Assembly (NCBI RefSeq): GCF_030384885.1
Contig: NZ_CP128613.1
Reading direction: 5' to 3' (one strand)
Source: Escherichia coli
GTDB taxonomy: Bacteria; Pseudomonadota; Gammaproteobacteria; Enterobacterales; Enterobacteriaceae
Length of the DNA: 64,000 bases
The translations under genes were made by a program, and so were the position numbers. The notes beneath the pieces are model-generated. The model was not told the origin of the DNA, did no database searches, and saw only the letters and a list, made by a program, of their open reading frames with translations. This document shows positions 115 to 64,000 of the stretch, piece by piece. The first letter of the stretch is position 1. The number at the start of each line of letters is the position of its first letter.

Positions 115-1791
115 TTACTCCTTGTCCTGGACTTCCGGCAGTTGCCAGAAATCGAAAAAATTAAACCAGTCGAGGGGCGACTGGAGCGCGTGATGTTCCA
201 GACGCGCGGCGTAATGATCGATAGCGTTTTGCAGCGCCTGCTGGCGTTCGCCACGCGGCAACAGCAGCGGGTCGGCAAAGGTTTCGCAGTGAATATGCAG
301 CTTGCCGTGCTGGCGCAGGGCGAAAATCAGATTCACCGGGCAGCGCAAAATAGAGGCGAGAATAAACGGCCCCTGTGGGAAGGGCGCAGGCTGGCCCATA
401 AACGGACTCCAGCAGACGCGCCAGTCGCCGCCGCGTTGCGGGTTGATGGCGATGCGGTCAGCAACAATCGCCACCCATTCGCCGTTATCCAGCTTCTCTT
501 TTAGCAGGATGGCGGTGTCCGGGCCGATATCCGTCACCGGGAGCAGGTTGATGCCTGCCTGCGGGGCCATCTCCTGCATTATCTGTTTAAAACGTTGGGC
601 GTTTTCGCTAAACACCAGCGCGTTAATGGTTTTGTAGCCCTGAATTTTTGCCAGCGCCCGGCACACTTCCACATCGCCAAGATGCGAGGCCAGCAGCAAT
701 TTGCCGCGCGGATCGCTGACGTTAAGTGCCGCTTCTGCGCCTGGTGCAAACAGCACATCACGCCCGAGTTGCAGCTCGCCGCGCCAACTGGCGATTTTGT
801 CGAGCATGGCGTTGCCGAAACGTAGAAAGTGCTGATAGCTGTTGAGTTTTGCTGCCTGTGGTTGATGCTGGCGCACACGGGCGAGCCAGTCTTGCGACGC
901 TTTGCGCGCCCGGCTGGCGGTGAGCCAGTAGACGCCCACCACCGGGTAAAGCAGCGCGGTAAACGCCGTTCTTCCCAGCAGGCGCCAGACCAGCAGCATC
1001 AGGCGCATTCCCCATAATCCTTTCACTTCGCTCTGCCGCGCCCAGTGGCTGGAAGAGTGGCGCATCAGCAGCGAAGGAATACGCGGCAACATGCCGAAAA
1101 ACAGGCGCGTGTGCATGAGCGAGATGCGGACGTTATCTTTCAGGGCATCAAAGTGCGAAAGCCCGTCCAGCGGATAGGTGACGCGAGTCGGCACGAAATA
1201 GCTGGTGTTTCCCTGCCAGTAGAGGCGCACCATCACTTCGGTGTCGAAATCCATCCGCTTGCCGATGGTGGCGTGTTTTGCCAGTTGCAGCGTTGGCGCA
1301 ACCGGATAAACGCGAAAGCCGCACATGCTGTCTTTCAGTTGCAGGGAGAGCGTTTCGATCCACACCCAGACGTGGGTGACCCAGCGCCCGTACAGCCGTG
1401 AGCGGGGGATGGAGTCATCGTAAATTGGCTGGCCGGAGATCAGTGCCGCAGGGTGTTGTTCAGCGAGTGCCAGCAGTTTGGGGATATCTTCAATCGCGTG
1501 CTGACCGTCGGCATCCACCTGTACCGCATGGCTGAACCCCGCGTCTGCCGCTGCCTGTAAGCCGCGCATTACCGCCGCGCCTTTGCCTGCGTTTTCTGCC
1601 AGGCGAATTAATGTCACGCCAGGCTGTTCGGCAACCAGATTATCCAGTTGCTGTTGCGTGGCGGCATCGCTGCCGTCATCCACCACAATACAGGGCAGAT
1701 TAAATGGCTTAAGACGCGCCAGCACGCCCGGCATCATTGCGCCGTGGTTGTAGCAGGGGATCAACACGCAGGGAGAAAAGTTTACCGACAT
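115..1791 (-). CDS. bifunctional family-2 glycosyltransferase / LpxL-like lipid acyltransferase (ApeJ-like)
   Basis: 558-aa ORF; N-terminus has GT-A signatures (LIPCYNH, VVDDGSDA, VDADGQH); C-terminal half resembles lauroyl/myristoyl (HtrB/LpxL-family) acyltransferases. Family assignment by pattern recognition, not search. Confidence 0.8.
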   Translation of the reverse strand: MSVNFSPCVLIPCYNHGAMMPGVLARLKPFNLPCIVVDDGSDAATQQQLDNLVAEQPGVTLIRLAENAGKGAAVMRGLQAAADAGFSHAVQVDADGQHAIEDIPKLLALAEQHPAALISGQPIYDDSIPRSRLYGRWVTHVWVWIETLSLQLKDSMCGFRVYPVAPTLQLAKHATIGKRMDFDTEVMVRLYWQGNTSYFVPTRVTYPLDGLSHFDALKDNVRISLMHTRLFFGMLPRIPSLLMRHSSSHWARQSEVKGLWGMRLMLLVWRLLGRTAFTALLYPVVGVYWLTASRARKASQDWLARVRQHQPQAAKLNSYQHFLRFGNAMLDKIASWRGELQLGRDVLFAPGAEAALNVSDPRGKLLLASHLGDVEVCRALAKIQGYKTINALVFSENAQRFKQIMQEMAPQAGINLLPVTDIGPDTAILLKEKLDNGEWVAIVADRIAINPQRGGDWRVCWSPFMGQPAPFPQGPFILASILRCPVNLIFALRQHGKLHIHCETFADPLLLPRGERQQALQNAIDHYAARLEHHALQSPLDWFNFFDFWQLPEVQDKE

Positions 1792-2135
1792 AGGCGGATC
1801 TTCCCGCTACTGGCGGTGTGGCGGGCGTCACCGTCGTGACGCTGATAACTAAAGCTCAGAATCTGGCGTTCTTCCTGCCAGCTAAGCGTGAGTGTGACGC
1901 GGTTATCCGGCAGCAATGGAGCCTGGAATTTGATGTTCTGAATGGAGTGAAAACGCCAACCGGGCGCGAGCAGGGCAAGCGCGTAACTCATCGCCCAGTC
2001 GATTTGTGCCACGCCGGGGAGTAATGGTTGTACGGCAAAATGACCGCGAAACCAGAACAGATCTGCCCTGAGATGCAAAACAATCTCAAGGTGATTCACT
2101 TGTGCCTGATGGCGCTCGATTTCATGGGGCTTCAT
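1782..2135 (-). CDS. FabA/FabZ-like hotdog 3-hydroxyacyl-ACP dehydratase
   Basis: Motif FRGHFAVQPLLPGVAQIDWAMS resembles the FabZ motif F.GHFP..P.MPGV; start placed at the ATG (2133-2135) preceded by AGGAG rather than the track's upstream ATG at 2165; overlaps the upstream gene's stop by 14 nt. Confidence 0.75.
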   Translation of the reverse strand: MKPHEIERHQAQVNHLEIVLHLRADLFWFRGHFAVQPLLPGVAQIDWAMSYALALLAPGWRFHSIQNIKFQAPLLPDNRVTLTLSWQEERQILSFSYQRHDGDARHTASSGKIRLCR

Positions 2136-3483
2136 GAAATAACTCCTGTAATTGCGCATAGACACGCTTGTTCATACTGTTTACTGGCATTTCATCAATA
2201 ACGCGCCAGTAACGCGGAATAGCAACTGGCTCCAGCGTCGGGCGCAGTAATCGCCGCCAGGCCATTTCCTGGCTGTGCCCGCCGCCGTTTTGCCATTGCA
2301 GGCGAGCTTCGTCATCCAGCACCAGCAAAACGCCAATACTCTGACGCCCGCCGCGCGTAACGGGAACTGCCGCCGCCTCGTGAATACCGTCCAGCGCCAG
2401 CAGACGTTGTTCTACTTCCTGGAGTGAAATGCGTTTTTCTTCAATCTTAACGATGCGTCCGCGACGCCCCATCAGATGGAACTGGCCGTCTTCGCTAAAC
2501 TGCAAGATATCGTCGAGTAACAGGCCGCTATCTTCCTCCATCAGAGGTGAAAAGAGACGAAAGGCATCATCTTCGGCCTGGAACTGCATACCTGGAAAGG
2601 GCCGCCAGCGGCGTTGCTCTTGTTCGCGGTAACGCCAGGCGATGACGCCGGTTTCCGTGCTGCCGTAGATTTCATCAGGCCAGACGCGCAGCCAGCTCGC
2701 GGTGTGTTGTACGTCCTGCCACGGTAGTTCACCGCCAGCGGACAGAAGCACCTGAACGGGGGGCGGGGATAGCTGAGCATCCAGACGCTTCAAAAATGCC
2801 GGGCTGCTGATGAAGATATAGCGATGCTGATGACTCAACGCGGCAAACTGTTCGACATACCAGAGCATGGCGGCATGGAGCGGTAATCCCAGCGCCATGG
2901 GCAGGAAAACGCGAAAAGTCAGGCCGTACAAATGCTGCGGCAATACGGAACCGATGACACGACATCCGGCAAGACGTGCGCCTAATCGTTCAGCCAGCAG
3001 TTCTGCTTCACGGTCCAACAAACGAACAGGTTTAATCACCCGCTTCGGCTGCCCTGTGGAACCAGAGGTAAACAGCTCGATATAAGCGTCTGGCGCTATA
3101 GCGGCAAAGGTGAATGATTGTGTCGCGACTTGTGGGGAGCTTGCTACCAACTGCAATGAACCTTGGCAGTTAAGTTCGCTGTCGCTAAGCACACCATCGA
3201 ACAGTTCACGTTGCTCGTTAAGCTGGATGACGCGGTTATGCCCCGGAAGCACCGGTGTTTTTCCGGCGTGTAGCGTGGCGAGCAGGGCAACGATAAACAG
3301 ATAGCAGTCCTCAAAGCACAGCGCCCAGCGTTCACCTGGTTGTTGCTGTAAACGGCAGATAAGTTGCGAGACATCGTGACGCAAATCGCCCAGCGTCCAG
3401 GTGCTTTCGTCCAGCCACGCAATGGGCGTGTCATCAGAGCGTGGCGCAGTCAGCCAGCGTGCAAGCGGTAAGGTCTGCTTCAT
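2122..3483 (-). CDS. AMP-dependent synthetase/ligase (acyl-ACP/acyl-CoA synthetase-like)
   Basis: TSGSTGQPK AMP-binding motif; start placed at the ATG that overlaps the upstream TGA as ATGA (3480-3483); the track ORF extends to 3522. Confidence 0.8.
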   Translation of the reverse strand: MKQTLPLARWLTAPRSDDTPIAWLDESTWTLGDLRHDVSQLICRLQQQPGERWALCFEDCYLFIVALLATLHAGKTPVLPGHNRVIQLNEQRELFDGVLSDSELNCQGSLQLVASSPQVATQSFTFAAIAPDAYIELFTSGSTGQPKRVIKPVRLLDREAELLAERLGARLAGCRVIGSVLPQHLYGLTFRVFLPMALGLPLHAAMLWYVEQFAALSHQHRYIFISSPAFLKRLDAQLSPPPVQVLLSAGGELPWQDVQHTASWLRVWPDEIYGSTETGVIAWRYREQEQRRWRPFPGMQFQAEDDAFRLFSPLMEEDSGLLLDDILQFSEDGQFHLMGRRGRIVKIEEKRISLQEVEQRLLALDGIHEAAAVPVTRGGRQSIGVLLVLDDEARLQWQNGGGHSQEMAWRRLLRPTLEPVAIPRYWRVIDEMPVNSMNKRVYAQLQELFHEAP

Positions 3484-4061
3484 GAGCGATCTCTTTTCAT
3501 CACCTGACGGCGCACCAGCCATTCACCAGCCATTAACGTCCCCATCAACAAATAAGCAATCATGCCGTTCCAGGCAGTCCATAACGACATATCGCCATGC
3601 AGCGCGGTAAAGAGGGCAATTCCGCCGTTGATGATGAAAAAGCCGCACCAGATTTGCGTGACGTGGCGGGTATAGCGCACGCCCTTTTCCGGGAGGTCTG
3701 GCTCCTGCAAACGCGCCAGCCGCTCAACAATTGGCATTGCCGACCACAGCGAACCGCCAAAAACCGCCAGCATTACCGCGTTAACCACTACCGGGTAAAA
3801 CAGCAGTAGCTGGTGCGTTTTCAACAGAAAGCTGGCAACACACAAGGCGATACCCACAACAGCGACGATTTGTGTGACGGCTTGTAGCGGCCCGGCCTGG
3901 CAACGAGTCTGGCGCAGGCGCAATAAAAGCAGCAGCGCCATCAGCGGCAACAGCCAGTGCAGGCCGTTATGTGCCAAACCAAGCCAAATCACAAACGGCC
4001 AGGCGAGCAGCAATAATCCAGTCAGCAGTTTAATAATCGGTAGCGAGCGAATGCCCGACAT
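3480..4061 (-). CDS. integral membrane protein of the lipid-biosynthesis cluster
   Basis: 193-aa ORF, several hydrophobic segments, co-directional and translationally coupled within the cluster. Confidence 0.7.
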   Translation of the reverse strand: MSGIRSLPIIKLLTGLLLLAWPFVIWLGLAHNGLHWLLPLMALLLLLRLRQTRCQAGPLQAVTQIVAVVGIALCVASFLLKTHQLLLFYPVVVNAVMLAVFGGSLWSAMPIVERLARLQEPDLPEKGVRYTRHVTQIWCGFFIINGGIALFTALHGDMSLWTAWNGMIAYLLMGTLMAGEWLVRRQVMKRDRS

Positions 4062-4065
4062 CAGA

Positions 4066-4317
4066 TCAGGCTTCTTGTAGCAGGCGTTCTACGGCCTCTA
4101 CGACATCCCGGACTGTACGCACTGCTTTAAACTCTTCCGGCTTGATTTTCTTACCGGTTTTCTTTTGCAGATGCACAATCATGTCAACGGCGTCGATGCT
4201 GTCCAGTTCCAGATCTTCGTACAGGCGCGCTTCAGGTTTGATGTCCTGCGGTTCGATTTCAAACAGCTTAACCAGCAGAGCTGAGACTTCCTGATAGACG
4301 GTTTGTTGTTCTGTCAT
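4066..4317 (-). CDS. acyl carrier protein
   Basis: 83 aa, acidic, LDSIDAVDMI phosphopantetheine-attachment motif. Confidence 0.85.
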   Translation of the reverse strand: MTEQQTVYQEVSALLVKLFEIEPQDIKPEARLYEDLELDSIDAVDMIVHLQKKTGKKIKPEEFKAVRTVRDVVEAVERLLQEA

Positions 4318-4328
4318 GATGGCTTTCC

Positions 4329-4586
4329 TCAGGCACGTTGTGCAGCAATAAAAGAGGCCAGAGTGGCGACAGAGAAAAAGTGCTGACGCATCTCTTCACT
4401 TTCCGCAGAAAGTACAACGCCATATTCATTTTTCACTGCCAGCCCCAGTTCCAGGGCATCGATAGAGTCCAGCCCTAAACCGTCGCCAAACAGTGGCGCG
4501 TCGGTATCGATATCATCAGGAGCCAACTCGTCCAGATTGAGGGTGCTGATGATGAGATTTTTAATTTCCAGATAAAGCGCTTGCAT
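4329..4586 (-). CDS. acyl carrier protein
   Basis: 85 aa, GLDSIDALELG phosphopantetheine-attachment motif; 5' end overlaps the upstream acyltransferase gene, so the exact start is uncertain. Confidence 0.8.
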   Translation of the reverse strand: MQALYLEIKNLIISTLNLDELAPDDIDTDAPLFGDGLGLDSIDALELGLAVKNEYGVVLSAESEEMRQHFFSVATLASFIAAQRA

Positions 4587-5382
4587 TATTTATTCCTGAG
4601 AGAGGTAAACAACCTTGTTGTAATTGAAGCAAAAGATGCCGGTTTAACTGCCTTGCTGCTAGCGCCGGTTCTTGTGAAGTTGCATCGTAAAATTTATTGA
4701 TTTCTACCCGCCCACGGACTTCAACCGTAAAAAGTGGCCTGGCAGGTGGAACGTCATACCATTTACTTTGTTTATCCAGCAGATGCTCGCTACAGCCGAT
4801 CGTCACGATGCGTAAATCGCTGGCGCAGCGCACGGCAATATTCGCCGCACCGCGCTGTAACGTCATTTTTTCACCAGGCTTCGTCCGCGTGCCTTCGGGG
4901 AAAATCAAGATAGTGTCGCCCTGTGCCAGTCGCTGTTGGCAACGGGGTAAGAGAGTTTCAGCTTCGCTGTTGATTAAATAATCTGCCGCCCGCACGACGC
5001 CGCCAAGAAAAGGATTTTTTAACAGCGCGCTTTTTACCAGGCAGTCAGTTTCTGGCATGACTGATGCCAGTAGTACGTAATCGATAAGCGTGGGATGATT
5101 AGCTACGACGAGGCAACCGCGTTCCTGACGTAAAATTTCAGCCCCATCAATACGATAATCCAGCACGCCAAGCCCTTTTGCGACTGTTAAAAACAGACGA
5201 AAACTGGCGGCAATGCTGCGACGCGCCAAACGACGGCGGCGGGAAGTGTTCCACACCAAAACTAACAGTACGTTAAACCACACCACAGAGAGTAGTAGTC
5301 CGCCGAGGCCAAACAGGGCAAAACACAACCCGGTCATAACCAGTCGCCATGTCCATTCCAGGCGTGACATCAGCTTACTCAT
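4561..5382 (-). CDS. PlsC-family (lysophospholipid/1-acylglycerol-3-phosphate-like) acyltransferase
   Basis: 273 aa; N-terminal transmembrane segment, NH-x4-D motif (ANHPTLID) and FPEGTRT motif. Confidence 0.8.
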   Translation of the reverse strand: MSKLMSRLEWTWRLVMTGLCFALFGLGGLLLSVVWFNVLLVLVWNTSRRRRLARRSIAASFRLFLTVAKGLGVLDYRIDGAEILRQERGCLVVANHPTLIDYVLLASVMPETDCLVKSALLKNPFLGGVVRAADYLINSEAETLLPRCQQRLAQGDTILIFPEGTRTKPGEKMTLQRGAANIAVRCASDLRIVTIGCSEHLLDKQSKWYDVPPARPLFTVEVRGRVEINKFYDATSQEPALAARQLNRHLLLQLQQGCLPLSGINNASALSGN

Positions 5383-6125
5383 CTACGGCTCCAGCGCCAC
5401 TGTACGCGCTCACCAGGAAGTGAAAAAGCATCTGAATTTTGTAAATAGTGCTGTAAAAACAACATGCTTTGCGGCAGTGTTGTTTCATTGCCCGCAATGG
5501 CTGGCTGTGTTTCACATTGCCACTCATCGCCAGCTTCAATCACCAGCGCAACAGCATATGGCCAGGTCGGCATTTCTGCTGGGAGCTGCGGATGATAGAA
5601 CTCAGGTAGAAAGCCATCAAAATCGACCATCAACACACGCTGGTATCCCGCTTGTAGCAGGCTAAGCACTTCACTCAAACCTTGCTGGAAAGTGTCGCGA
5701 CCAGCCGAAAGCGATGACGAAACGATCGGCTGTTTGGCCGCAATGGTCAGGTTACCCACGGAAGAGTTGTGTACTGAAAGTGCAAAGTCGGTGGGGGAAA
5801 GCGCCTGTTCAGTTGCCAGTGCATGAACAATGCGGTAATTGCGCTCCAGTTCGCCATGACGACTGGTATACAAAACGGCGTCTGGCTGATGGCGGCGTAG
5901 CATTGCCAGGCCGCATTCAACAGCCAGTTTGCTGCCTGAACTGAGGCGGCGGGCGGTCATCATTGGCAGTTCACTTAATTTTGCCAACGGCGCGGCAGGG
6001 TCAATCGCCCACGGCTGGCGCGACCATGCTTGCCATTGCTGCGCTTCGCTAAGTCCAGGCGCCAGTGCCTGCCAGTCGGTAATATTTAATGTAAATTTCA
6101 TCAACGCGCGCCCGCGGTAAACCAA
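5379..6125 (-). CDS. hypothetical protein, possibly beta-ketoacyl-synthase N-terminal-like domain (chain-length-factor-like)
   Basis: 248-aa ORF with ATGA overlap to the downstream acyltransferase; function inferred only from position in the cluster and vague resemblance; needs an HMM search. Confidence 0.6.
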   Translation of the reverse strand: MVYRGRALMKFTLNITDWQALAPGLSEAQQWQAWSRQPWAIDPAAPLAKLSELPMMTARRLSSGSKLAVECGLAMLRRHQPDAVLYTSRHGELERNYRIVHALATEQALSPTDFALSVHNSSVGNLTIAAKQPIVSSSLSAGRDTFQQGLSEVLSLLQAGYQRVLMVDFDGFLPEFYHPQLPAEMPTWPYAVALVIEAGDEWQCETQPAIAGNETTLPQSMLFLQHYLQNSDAFSLPGERVQWRWSRR

Positions 6126-6141
6126 AATTATTAAGTGACGA

Positions 6142-7209
6142 TTATTTCTTTTGGCATATCAAAAGAGTATGCCCAACGCCTAAATTATCGTGGCGCTCTG
6201 CTACCTGAAATCCTGCTTTATTCAGATAGTCGTAAAATTTCTCTGCACTATAGAAACGGCTGTTACCGTTTGCCATGCAGGTGAAATAAAGTGAGGACGC
6301 GTTCAGGCTAAATGATGCTGCTTCAAACCGCTGCGCATCCCAGAACAACTCCATGATGCAAACTTTTGCGCCAGGCTTCATTACGCTGGCGATTTTGCTG
6401 AGTATGCTAATTATTTGTTCGGGTGAAAAACAGTCTAAAAATTGGCTCATCCACCAGATATCAGCCTCGCCCGGTAATGGGGCATCGCTTAGCATATCCA
6501 CCGCATGGAAATCTATGCGATCAGAAAAACCTGCATTCGCGATATTTTCTTTCGCTAGTACGATTTGTTGTGGCAGATCTAATAACGTCACGGCGATGTT
6601 TTCATTGTATTTGCAGCAACGCAAAGCCCACTTACCCGTATTGCCGCCTACATCGTACAATGTTGTGGGGTTGTTGGCGAATACATAAGGCAGTGCGGCG
6701 TTAAATGCGCCATCTGAATAGTAATGATCAAACGCAAACCAGCTTTCACGAGCGGCATCTGGTAATTGTGAAAGTGCGGGATATATCGTCGACCAGTCGC
6801 CAAATACTTTTAACCCGGACGGTTTTCCTTCATTGAGTGAATCGGCGAGGAAGAAGAGCCCCTGATAGCAGACATCCTGGGTGAAATCCATATTCACGCG
6901 AGTCATAGTGTCATGCAGGAGGTAATGACCGATTTTCGCCAGGTAATACATTCCCTCTTTACAGGTAATAATTCGCCCGCTTAAGCCCATATCTAACAGA
7001 ACGCTGGCCGCATATTCGTTGATATGGCTATGTTCGGTGATATCAGCCAGCGTTGCGCCATGTTTGCCTTGCCGATCCAGATATGAAAGTACACCCGCAT
7101 TACGTAGGCAGAGAGCTGTTTGAAAAAGCATGGGGGCAAAGGCAATGCGTTGAGCTTCGGTAATCGCATCCAGTGCGCTAAGAGAATCCTGTTCGTACAT
7201 GTTGGGCAC
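6142..7209 (-). CDS. class I SAM-dependent O-methyltransferase
   Basis: 355 aa; VGGNTGKWA glycine-rich SAM-binding motif followed by LLDLP...DM..D, typical of O-methyltransferase family 2. Confidence 0.85.
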   Translation of the reverse strand: MPNMYEQDSLSALDAITEAQRIAFAPMLFQTALCLRNAGVLSYLDRQGKHGATLADITEHSHINEYAASVLLDMGLSGRIITCKEGMYYLAKIGHYLLHDTMTRVNMDFTQDVCYQGLFFLADSLNEGKPSGLKVFGDWSTIYPALSQLPDAARESWFAFDHYYSDGAFNAALPYVFANNPTTLYDVGGNTGKWALRCCKYNENIAVTLLDLPQQIVLAKENIANAGFSDRIDFHAVDMLSDAPLPGEADIWWMSQFLDCFSPEQIISILSKIASVMKPGAKVCIMELFWDAQRFEAASFSLNASSLYFTCMANGNSRFYSAEKFYDYLNKAGFQVAERHDNLGVGHTLLICQKK

Positions 7210-38128: not shown

Positions 38129-38219
38129 GCGATCAGGAAGACCCTCGCGGAGAACCTGAAAGCACGACATTGCTCACATTGCTTCCAGTATTACTTAGCC
38201 AGCCGGGTGCTGGCTTTTT
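38129..38219 (+). ncRNA. ryhB: RyhB small RNA (Fur-repressed, iron-sparing)
   Basis: Sequence gcgatcaggaagaccctcgcggagaacctgaaagcacgacattgctcacattgcttccagtattacttagccagccgggtgctggcttttttt recognised as E. coli RyhB with its terminal hairpin and U-tract; lies between yhhY and yhhX as expected. Confidence 0.92.
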
Positions 38220-38341
38220 TTTTGACCTTTCGTTCTCAATTTATCCACGGGAAGTGCTTGTGTTTGTTATGCGCACTCCTGTAGGAACCGCGTCCGCTTT
38301 GCGCTAAGGTGGTAGATAACCACCTTAAAAAGGACGAAATC

Positions 38342-61796: not shown

Positions 61797-62639
<843 letters not shown>

Positions 62640-62655
62640 TTCCAGGGATTTATAA

Positions 62656-63414
62656 ATGAAACAAACACAACGTCACAACGGTATTATTGAACTGGTTAAA
62701 CAGCAGGGTTATGTCAGCACCGAAGAACTGGTGGAACACTTCTCCGTCAGTCCGCAGACTATTCGTCGTGACCTCAACGAGCTGGCGGAGCAAAACCTGA
62801 TCCTGCGTCACCATGGCGGCGCGGCACTGCCTTCCAGTTCGGTTAACACGCCGTGGCACGATCGTAAGGCCACCCAGACCGAAGAAAAAGAGCGTATTGC
62901 CCGCAAAGTGGCGGAGCAAATTCCTAACGGCTCGACGCTATTTATTGATATCGGCACCACGCCGGAAGCGGTGGCGCACGCGCTGCTTAATCACAGCAAT
63001 TTGCGCATTGTGACCAACAATCTCAACGTCGCTAACACGCTGATGGTGAAAGACGATTTCCGCATTATCCTCGCCGGTGGCGAATTACGCAGCCGCGATG
63101 GTGGGATCATTGGCGAAGCGACGCTCGATTTTATCTCCCAGTTCCGCCTCGACTTCGGGATTCTGGGGATCAGCGGCATCGATAGCGACGGCTCGCTGCT
63201 GGAGTTCGATTACCACGAAGTTCGCACCAAACGCGCTATTATTGAGAACTCGCGCCACGTTATGCTGGTTGTCGATCACTCGAAATTTGGCCGTAATGCG
63301 ATGGTCAATATGGGCAGCATCAGCATGGTCGATGCCGTCTACACCGACGCCCCGCCACCAGCGAGCGTGATGCAGGTGCTGACAGACCATCATATTCAGC
63401 TGGAGCTGTGCTGA
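62656..63414 (+). CDS. glpR: glycerol-3-phosphate regulon repressor GlpR (DeoR family)
   Basis: 252 aa, recognised (MKQTQRHNGIIELVKQQGYVSTEELVEHFSVSPQTIRRDL). Confidence 0.97.
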   Translation: MKQTQRHNGIIELVKQQGYVSTEELVEHFSVSPQTIRRDLNELAEQNLILRHHGGAALPSSSVNTPWHDRKATQTEEKERIARKVAEQIPNGSTLFIDIGTTPEAVAHALLNHSNLRIVTNNLNVANTLMVKDDFRIILAGGELRSRDGGIIGEATLDFISQFRLDFGILGISGIDSDGSLLEFDYHEVRTKRAIIENSRHVMLVVDHSKFGRNAMVNMGSISMVDAVYTDAPPPASVMQVLTDHHIQLELC

Positions 63415-64000
63415 TCCTGCACGGCTTCCCACGTCAGACCAAAACGCGCCAGGTATTTGCGTAGCCGATCCGCGTCGTTGACGCTGGCTTTGCCCTGGCG
63501 CGAAACATCAAAGAGTTCACGCCCGGCAGCGGAAAGCGATTTTGCCTGACGGCAAACGACGATAACGTTTTCCAGTTGCATGCGGTCAAAGAGATCGATG
63601 TTTTCCGCTTCAGCGCCCAGTAGCGGTGTAAGCACGGAAGGGCGGCTTTCCTGCCAGTTATAGCGCAGACGGTTTATCTCATCTTCAACCACTTCCAGAG
63701 TGATGCGTCCGCTAGTGGCAAAGGTTGCCATTCGCGTGACGCTGGCAGAAAGCTCGCGAAAGTTACCGCGCCATGTTGCCTGGGGAGATGTCGCAAAGGC
63801 CAGCCAGGCGCGCCTCGCTTCGGTGTTAAAACGTACGCTGTCGCCGGTGAGTGAGGCGTGGCGCTCCACTTCATAATCCAGGTTCGGTTCAATATCTTCC
63901 TGGCGCTGGCGTAGACCCGGCAGGGTGAAGGTCCAGAGATTGATCCGCGCGTACAGGTCTTCGCGAAATTTGCCTTCGGCAACCAGCTGACGCAAATCGC
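63396..64000 (-). CDS. rtcR: sigma-54-dependent transcriptional regulator RtcR, C-terminal portion (gene continues beyond window end)
   Basis: Minus-strand frame open to the window edge; C-terminal sequence ...GRELFDVSRQGKASVNDADRLRKYLARFGLTWEAVQDQHSSS fits the RtcR C-terminal DNA-binding region; converges on and overlaps glpR by 19 bp. Confidence 0.85.
   Translation of the reverse strand, partial: DLRQLVAEGKFREDLYARINLWTFTLPGLRQRQEDIEPNLDYEVERHASLTGDSVRFNTEARRAWLAFATSPQATWRGNFRELSASVTRMATFATSGRITLEVVEDEINRLRYNWQESRPSVLTPLLGAEAENIDLFDRMQLENVIVVCRQAKSLSAAGRELFDVSRQGKASVNDADRLRKYLARFGLTWEAVQDQHSSS

Follow-up and report, generated by a model that had tools for sequence, protein, structure and literature searches.

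We analysed the junction of two convergent genes near the end of a 64,000-nucleotide stretch of Escherichia coli DNA (the window; assembly GCF_030384885.1, contig NZ_CP128613.1). A sequence-only reading of this DNA had named the genes glpR (plus strand) and rtcR (minus strand) and had reported that their 3′ ends share 19 bp at positions 63396 to 63414. The gene names agreed with the protein family matches, and the shared bases with the coordinates of the open reading frames and of the PGAP annotation. The GlpR product matched NCBIfam NF008154 over residues 1 to 252 of 252 (552.6 bits), with the Pfam domains HTH_DeoR at residues 6 to 61 and DeoRC at residues 74 to 231, and the 199 visible residues of RtcR matched positions 330 to 529 of 530 of NCBIfam NF038308. 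The features of the junction are as follows.

62656 to 63414, plus strand: glpR coding sequence, intact here (252 amino acids), encoding the DeoR/GlpR-family repressor of the glycerol-3-phosphate regulon.
63396 to 64000, minus strand: 3′ part of rtcR, encoding the sigma-54-dependent activator of the rtcBA RNA-repair operon; the 5′ rest lies beyond the window end.
63396 to 63414, both strands: convergent overlap of the two coding sequences, 19 bp in phase 123:213, with each base mapped to its codon position in both genes.
63412 to 63414, plus strand: glpR stop codon TGA, the triplet that appears to set the overlap length.
63396 to 63398, minus strand: rtcR stop codon TGA, the complement of T-CA across the glpR codons ATT and CAG.
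63399 to 63413, minus strand: RtcR five-codon extension CAG CAC AGC TCC AGC (Q-H-S-S-S), antisense of the conserved C-terminal codons of GlpR.

The sequence of positions 63380 to 63430 is TGACAGACCATCATATTCAGCTGGAGCTGTGCTGATCCTGCACGGCTTCCC; within it, the 3′ end of glpR reads ATT CAG CTG GAG CTG TGC TGA on the plus strand and that of rtcR reads GAT CAG CAC AGC TCC AGC TGA on the minus strand (stop at 63398 to 63396). In the identical record NZ_CP027579.1 (locus L001), PGAP placed glpR at 3057 to 3815 (plus strand) and rtcR at 3797 to 5395 (minus strand), which is the same 19-bp overlap, and annotated the full-length rtcR product as 532 amino acids. The annotation of the K-12-type strain CJ236 (glpR, 3559848 to 3560605; rtcR, 3558268 to 3559866) likewise contained an overlap of 19 bp, and the same overlap is given by RefSeq/PGAP for BL21, O157 Xuzhou21, and further E. 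coli. Alternative stops on re-annotation, which the sequence-only reading had named as the outcome that would speak against it, were not encountered: PGAP calls the same coordinates, and re-annotation cannot move the stop positions because the reading frame fixes them. There is next to no chance that the overlap is an artefact of annotation or sequencing, for example through a misplaced stop, a frameshift, or a spurious open reading frame. Frameshifted RtcR proteins do occur rarely in the databases (636 amino acids, running about 104 codons further through antisense glpR), but nothing specific to this locus points to such an error; instead, the match of each protein to its family profile extends to the C-terminus, and the identical junction is present in thousands of independent assemblies with concurring PGAP coordinates. 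The junction segment (221 bp, coverage of at least 80%) was detected in 5,423 of 5,426 complete E. coli genomes. Based on the NCBIfam equivalog matches and the RefSeq annotation, both open reading frames are genuine protein-coding genes, and the glpR-rtcR overlap is confirmed to be real, conserved, and already annotated in RefSeq. Over 1.4 kb, a single complete E. coli genome (strain 2013C-4282, NZ_CP027579.1) was 100% identical to the window and 5,407 others were 90 to 95% identical, and the GlpR of the window was identical to that of Escherichia sp. E1V33; thus, the window represents a divergent Escherichia lineage. Within the overlap, the single difference from most E. coli was at position 63399 (G/A), which is synonymous in both genes (CAG/CAA in glpR and AGC/AGT in rtcR).

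The codon phase of the overlap was examined base by base. Codon position 1 of glpR was found to pair with position 2 of rtcR, position 2 with position 1, and position 3 with position 3, an arrangement that Lillo & Krakauer (PMC2174442) denote as 123:213. The rtcR codon facing the glpR stop is obtained by reverse-complementing the last base of the GlpR Cys codon plus the first two bases of the stop; a glpR end of TGY followed by TAA or TAG is read in rtcR as a stop (TAA/TAG), and one of TGY followed by TGA is read as Gln (CAA/CAG). When the glpR TGA of the window was changed in silico to TAA or TAG, an rtcR stop arose at 63411 to 63413 and the overlap was shortened to 4 nt. We propose that rtcR runs into the 3′ end of glpR with the third codon positions of the two genes aligned and with GlpR ending in Cys (TGY) plus a stop, such that (i) with a glpR stop of TAA or TAG, both genes would terminate inside one tetramer (TTAA, CTAA, or TTAG) and overlap by 4 nt; and (ii) with TGA, RtcR would run on for the five codons Q-H-S-S-S to the next antisense stop and overlap by 19 nt. 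The QHSSS sequence would be dictated wholly by the antisense of the invariant QLELC codons of GlpR, and a single transition at the second base of the glpR stop, which leaves GlpR unchanged, would suffice to toggle between the 4-nt and the 19-nt state. The length itself calls for little comment. Minus-strand frames extend into the glpR of the window for 19 nt (the actual frame) and for 95 and 330 nt (the other two), and the rtcR frame across antisense glpR contains 9 stops in 252 codons, so a run of five sense codons before a stop is unremarkable; the 19-bp length is statistically not unusual.

Junctions from related genomes were compared with this scheme. An RtcR form of 527 amino acids that ends in LQN, five residues short of the 532-residue form (P0028, representing 2,038 member sequences), was forecast beforehand to neighbour a glpR with a TAA or TAG stop and a 4-nt overlap. 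The genomic context of a Salmonella-type locus (L088, with a Ro60 gene upstream) matched this forecast: rtcR occupies 1501 to 3084 and glpR 3081 to 3839, the ends read CTG TGT TAA in glpR and AAT TAA in rtcR, and both stops fall within one TTAA, a 4-nt overlap. In Superficieibacter electus (L031), glpR ends with TGT TAG and rtcR with AAC TAA, again with an overlap of 4 nt as read directly from the sequence. In UBA5654 (L027), glpR ends with TGC TAA and the ancestral rtcR frame with CGT TAG, a 1-nt deletion upstream having shifted the frame in this metagenome-assembled genome. The counterpart of the rtcR codon CAG (63413 to 63411) is therefore TAA in the first two loci and TAG in the ancestral frame of the third. 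The 19-nt overlap with a glpR TGA was found in Escherichia, E. albertii, E. whittamii, K. oxytoca, K. spallanzanii, and five further diverged lineages, and every locus examined that encodes the QHSSS tail had both the TGA stop and the 19-nt overlap. Among the 532-residue QHSSS-type RtcRs for which genomic context was retrieved (P0004-type, P0008, P0026, P0027, P0029, and P0038), all six adjoined glpR with the 19-nt overlap. Longer overlaps were detected in Intestinirhabdus alba (35 nt) and with a 536-residue RtcR form of Salmonella enterica (38 nt), whose RtcR tails end in AISTAPAEYGDR and SISTIPAVYGGRR, respectively; these states arise because a 7-nt indel just past the glpR stop moves RtcR to another frame. 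In all sampled loci with overlaps of 19, 35, or 38 nt the glpR stop was TGA, and in those whose rtcR frame stops at the 4-nt position it was TAA or TAG.

Across loci retrieved by GlpR from 80 Enterobacteriaceae species, rtcR was absent within 2.5 kb downstream in 72, the 19-nt state was present in 5, and other states were present in 3; the glpR stops of these 80 species were a mix of TAA, TGA, and TAG with frequent flips. The 4-nt and 19-nt states were both scattered over genera, and with this distribution the change may have run from 4 to 19 nt or the reverse. Overall, it is well supported that the identity of the glpR stop acts as a one-base evolutionary toggle for the C-terminus of RtcR (527 versus 532 amino acids) and for the overlap length.

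The five residues added to RtcR in the 19-nt state were next compared with the rest of the protein family. In about 90 RtcR homologs from beta- and gamma-proteobacteria, the sequence NDADRLRKYLARFGLxW was conserved and was followed by 5 to 20 residues unrelated in sequence; the QHSSS tail was confined to the enteric RtcRs among these homologs. From this family conservation, we take the conserved C-terminal motif to be the end of the DNA-binding helix; Pfam made no HTH domain call for the C-terminus of RtcR. The alignment to NF038308 stopped at residue 194 of the 199 visible, directly before QHSSS. In a DNA alignment of 16 junctions, the end of glpR (CAR CTG GAR CTN TGY stop) was almost invariant, and the RtcR tail after the Trp was the most variable part, with many substitutions and indels. 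Furthermore, the QLELC end of GlpR was invariant in 80 of 80 species sampled, although it lies beyond the end of the Pfam DeoRC domain (residue 231). Because the glpR end is invariant and the RtcR tail variable, GlpR governs the sequence of the overlap and RtcR reads whatever the antisense offers; the five-residue extension of RtcR appears, from these alignments, to be a functionally unimportant passenger tail. We consider it very probable that two unrelated regulator genes overlap tail to tail here in a routine way, as a consequence of stop-codon geometry and with no selection for the overlap as such.

The sequence-only reading had also remarked that no room is left for terminators between the two genes, and this holds, as the coding sequences share their last bases and the intergenic space is zero. 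It had gone on to suggest a termination signal shared by both genes within the coding sequence. Here the analysis came to a different result, in that the junction is without a terminator-like site and a hairpin found over the glpR stop has no U-tract and is not conserved.

63402 to 63428, plus strand: hairpin GGAGCUGUGC-UGAUCCU-GCACGGCUUC, −16.4 kcal/mol, with the glpR stop in the loop; not conserved.

Neither strand has a U-tract after this hairpin, the plus strand continuing as CCACGUCAG. A scan of positions 62600 to 64000 for promoter and terminator consensus sequences returned two terminator-like sites (mean after shuffling, 2.0), neither of them near the junction, and an Rfam search of 62000 to 64000 with E-values up to 1 returned nothing. 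Folding of the 3′ flanks gave a z-score of −2.1 over 150 nt on the plus strand and −0.35 on the minus strand, with no terminator architecture. Conservation of the hairpin was tested in 14 lineages with the 19-nt overlap and in 4 other lineages. The minimum free energy of the equivalent 50-nt plus-strand window ranged from −6.1 to −19.9 kcal/mol (z, +0.55 to −3.4) over the 14 lineages, about half of which had a moderately stable hairpin over the glpR stop (plus-strand z below −2), and the minus-strand fold was near random (z about 0) in most lineages. As presence and stability were inconsistent over the 14 plus 4 lineages, the hairpin was rejected as a conserved element.

That the hairpin might nonetheless serve as a signal shared in the coding sequence, either by pausing or terminating transcription in both directions or by protecting, as a stem, the 3′ ends of both mRNAs, we regard as unlikely. 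Its stability of −16.4 kcal/mol corresponds to a z of about −2.3 to −2.7 in the window, K-12, and E. albertii; a comparable stability is reached from different bases in the K. oxytoca group and L090 (−18 to −20 kcal/mol; z, −2.4 to −3.4); and genomes that lack rtc usually have a hairpin or REP element right after glpR, all of which is in line with such a role. However, the structure forms weakly or not at all in BL21, SK1144, E. whittamii, L091, L094, and all 4-nt lineages; it is without a U-tract on both strands and has a minus-strand z of about 0 in most lineages; and 10 of 130 nearby 50-nt windows equal or exceed its stability. The Term-seq data of Adams et al. 2021 (PMC7815308; three growth conditions) list no 3′ end at MG1655 3559500 to 3560099 on either strand, but both genes are weakly expressed, so that ends may have escaped listing. 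Similarly, the TERMITe supplements assign an intrinsic terminator to neither gene and leave glpR and rtcR unmentioned, a result whose weight is limited by the weak expression of both. The hairpin is probably incidental, though it may still play a weak structural role.

Evidence on how transcription ends past the overlap was available from K-12. In Adams et al. 2021 (PMC7815308, supplementary file 2), MG1655 3559514 on the minus strand is given as a Rho termination region and classed as antisense to rtcR; it is a strong one, with upstream/downstream reads of 154/29 in untreated cells and 153/256 after bicyclomycin (BCM) treatment (Rho score 8.9, p = 2.7e-27). Antisense regions are the largest class of Rho termination regions in that study (51.5%).

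63700 to 63800, plus strand: predicted equivalent, in the window genome, of the K-12 Rho region, with MG1655 3559514 corresponding to window position 63748 in a gap-free alignment.

The MG1655 Rho region sits 334 nt beyond the glpR stop. Thus, the suggestion of termination inside coding sequence stands in part: the K-12 glpR-strand transcript does end about 334 nt into antisense rtcR, but this end is Rho-dependent and strand-specific rather than shared. In K-12, glpR has a 1-nt deletion at nt 151 that creates a premature stop at codon 106 and leaves the last ~440 nt untranslated, and because of this frameshift the exact Rho end in the window genome may differ from that of K-12. Rho cannot load on translated RNA, and read-through into antisense rtcR would therefore be expected at least as strongly in a genome with intact glpR, given that in K-12 transcription reaches 334 nt past the normal glpR stop despite the frameshift. 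The maximum C:G ratio in 78-nt windows was 1.24 downstream of the glpR stop and 1.38 downstream of the rtcR stop (90th percentile of the background for both, 1.53), with a distinctive C-rich, G-poor stretch at neither. We suggest that, as the genes are separated neither by intergenic DNA nor by an intrinsic terminator, each transcript would enter the other gene as antisense RNA, and that Rho would end each antisense transcript once ribosomes leave; such an end is experimental for the glpR strand of K-12 and predicted for this genome and for the rtcR strand. Rho termination of the rtcR strand inside antisense glpR is predicted as the default expectation.

The neighbourhood of glpR was also examined in loci that lack rtc. 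In these, glpR mostly converges on a gene whose product ends in MMGYGV*, confirmed as MalT in L012 (NF003420, 1447 bits), and the junctions have very short spacers with REP-like or other hairpins, usually directly after glpR. In Kosakonia the glpR/malT junction contains a textbook bidirectional terminator, AAACCGCCTTGCGGCGGTTTTT, with the stem-loop AAACCGCC-TTGC-GGCGGTTTTT; in Raoultella and K. pneumoniae the hairpin takes in the last malT codons; and in Enterobacter sp. kpr-6 glpR and malT overlap by 4 nt (TTAA). Approximately 45 nt of the rtcR 3′ end is kept as a deletion scar in K. michiganensis and K. grimontii, and E. coli SK1144 has an internal rtcR-rtcB-rtcA deletion. These comparisons suggest that the rtc locus is a block next to the glpR stop that some genomes have and others lack, and close convergent junctions appear to be the rule at this site, whichever gene is the neighbour.

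Such a distribution bears on whether the overlap is a selected regulatory device, in which excludon-like antisense pairing or RNA polymerase collision would couple the glycerol-3-phosphate repressor with the RNA-repair activator. Programmed collision of polymerases is on record for convergent gene pairs (bioRxiv 10.1101/2022.10.23.513370), complementary RNA could exist given the ~334 nt by which the K-12 glpR-strand transcript runs antisense into rtcR, and 5,423 of 5,426 E. coli genomes, as well as several genera, have retained the 19-nt arrangement. Yet we find this coupling quite improbable, as (i) the overlap length shifts freely among close relatives (4, 19, 35, or 38 nt); (ii) 72 of 80 Enterobacteriaceae species are without rtcR downstream of glpR; (iii) glpR of rtc-less genomes mostly converges on the MMGYGV-ending gene, often as tightly and once through a 4-nt TTAA; (iv) some E. 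coli and Klebsiella have lost rtc by deletion or decay while glpR is unaffected; (v) either partner may be a pseudogene while the junction persists; and (vi) the invariant C-terminus of GlpR accounts for the conservation within E. coli. To our knowledge, no functional link between the GlpR and RtcR regulons is known, and a literature search on glpR and rtcR together found no discussion of the overlap. A broader version, for which we see very little likelihood, would hold that the stop-codon toggle sets the RtcR end and overlap length and that Rho-terminated read-through from glpEGR, antisense to the last ~330 nt of rtcR, measurably damps rtcR and links the glycerol regulon to RNA repair; if this were true, only the regulatory link from glpEGR read-through to rtcR would be new. 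The toggle by itself is of little consequence. On balance, the evidence speaks for an overlap that is incidental and due to geometry, with Rho dealing with the read-through transcripts, and it does not support the view, advanced in part by the sequence-only reading, that the overlap implies regulation, interference, or a shared signal.

An incidental overlap of this kind is in agreement with what has been catalogued for E. coli, in which 58 (Lillo & Krakauer 2007, PMC2174442) and 75 (Huvet & Stumpf 2014, PMC4161906) convergent pairs with overlapping coding sequences have been counted. Like these, glpR/rtcR consists of bona fide genes with a short overlap, arising by stop-codon movement and in a described antiparallel phase, and it differs from them in nothing essential. 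Mutation of a stop codon is the accepted origin of convergent overlaps, with the 4-nt tetramers recognised as a class (PMC2174442, PMC4161906); glpR/rtcR fits this model in that relatives have a stop at the position of the sense codon (RtcR of 527 versus 532 amino acids) and in that the added residues come after the part of RtcR conserved across the family. Of the tetramer overlaps (TTAA, CTAA, CTAG, and TTAG), three are represented by sister states, TTAA in the Salmonella-type locus, TTAG in Superficieibacter, and CTAA in the ancestral frame of UBA5654, whereas the window has the tetramer CTGA, which is without an antisense stop and leaves RtcR five codons longer. Of all convergent overlaps, 47% are in phase 123:213, which is the commonest owing to the 4-nt class, but among those of at least 5 nt it is the rarest, at 18% (PMC2174442); the rare phase is explained here in that the 19-nt state corresponds to the 4-nt state with five more codons in the same frame. 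Only about 20% of genes in convergent overlaps have predicted intrinsic terminators (PMC2174442). With respect to Rho-dependent antisense termination (Peters et al. 2012, as presented in PMC7815308), the glpR-strand end of K-12 is likewise BCM-sensitive, antisense, and more than 50 nt past the translation stop; the window differs in having no clear C-rich, G-poor loading site and in having an intact glpR, which in K-12 is a frameshifted pseudogene. Bidirectional intrinsic terminators (Ju et al. 2019, as cited) resemble glpR/rtcR in the convergent arrangement and the GC-rich stem-loop at the junction, but the glpR/rtcR stem lies in coding sequence, is unconserved, and is without flanking A- or U-tracts or mapped 3′ ends.

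The glpR-rtcR overlap is thus ordinary and already known; its biological weight is very small, and no special mechanism is needed to explain it. In scans of genomes, short convergent overlaps with an extension past the conserved end of one protein should score as ordinary. The locus is of use as a worked example of how the choice of TGA versus TAA or TAG in one gene sets the stop of its convergent neighbour in phase 123:213, of how a short passenger tail may originate, and of how Rho acting inside the opposite gene may cope with the missing intergenic terminator.

Within the rtcR coding sequence, a perfect inverted repeat of 9 bp pairs into a stem stronger than any other nearby on the glpR-sense strand. 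No U-tract was found after this stem.
63445-63453 and 63494-63502, window: arms CGCGCCAGG / CCTGGCGCG, spaced 40 nt

An antisense reading frame was also detected inside glpR. Its frame is the exact complement of the glpR codons, with 2 stops in 252 antisense codons.
63085-63432, window (-): antisense ORF, 115 codons without a stop
Two 636-aa RtcR variants (P0002 and P0009), of a kind rare in databases, were found to be frameshifted into the glpR-complementary frame and are about 104 codons longer as a result; these are probably errors or pseudogenes.

At loci where rtc is absent, glpR and malT were observed to converge just as tightly, with the following arrangements at the junction (coordinates of each retrieved locus):
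2366-2369, L037 (Enterobacter sp. kpr-6): TTAA, a 4-nt stop/stop overlap of glpR and malT
directly past 3259, L052, L065, L067, and L085 (Raoultella-type loci): hairpin ACGGCGT-CAG-ACGCCGT, which takes in the malT stop and the last malT codons
directly past 3259, L033, L034, and L068 (Kosakonia): canonical bidirectional terminator

The rtc locus itself has decayed repeatedly, including: (i) E. coli SK1144 (L005), which carries an internal deletion from rtcR to rtcA; (ii) K. michiganensis and K. grimontii (L056 and L086), in which the 3′ terminus of rtcR survives beside glpR as a remnant of about 45 nt; and (iii) ETEC1701 (L007), where a deletion takes out the glpR 3′ end and changes the end of rtcR. 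Only one genome, L001, matches the window at 100% identity; its annotation marks rtcB as frameshifted, with rtcR and rtcA both intact.
5583-6808, L001 (NZ_CP027579.1 3957999-3959224): rtcB pseudogene by annotation, outside the window and directly past rtcR
A Ro60/TROVE protein, rather than RtcB, is the product of the divergently oriented gene upstream of rtcR in Salmonella-type lineages and in several further enteric ones (L088, L090, L091, and L092); thus, the rtc block adjoining glpR has at least two operon versions, and either junction state can occur in both.

Elsewhere in the window, two hits reached the Rfam gathering score, the second positioned directly downstream of the glpD ORF end, and no tRNA genes were found in the whole window.
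38158-38222 (+): RyhB, 83 bits
59436-59558 (-): full-length hit to the isrC Hfq-binding sRNA family, 145 bits

The glpR gene of the window is intact, unlike that of K-12-type strains and O157 Xuzhou21 (L004), the latter of which has an internal stop within glpR. In K-12-type strains glpR is a pseudogene, with a 1-nt deletion at nt 151 and a premature stop at codon 106.
3559848-3560605, NZ_CP029238.1 (L095, K-12-type CJ236): glpR pseudogene
This pseudogene state in K-12-type strains is relevant when K-12 transcript data are applied to other strains.
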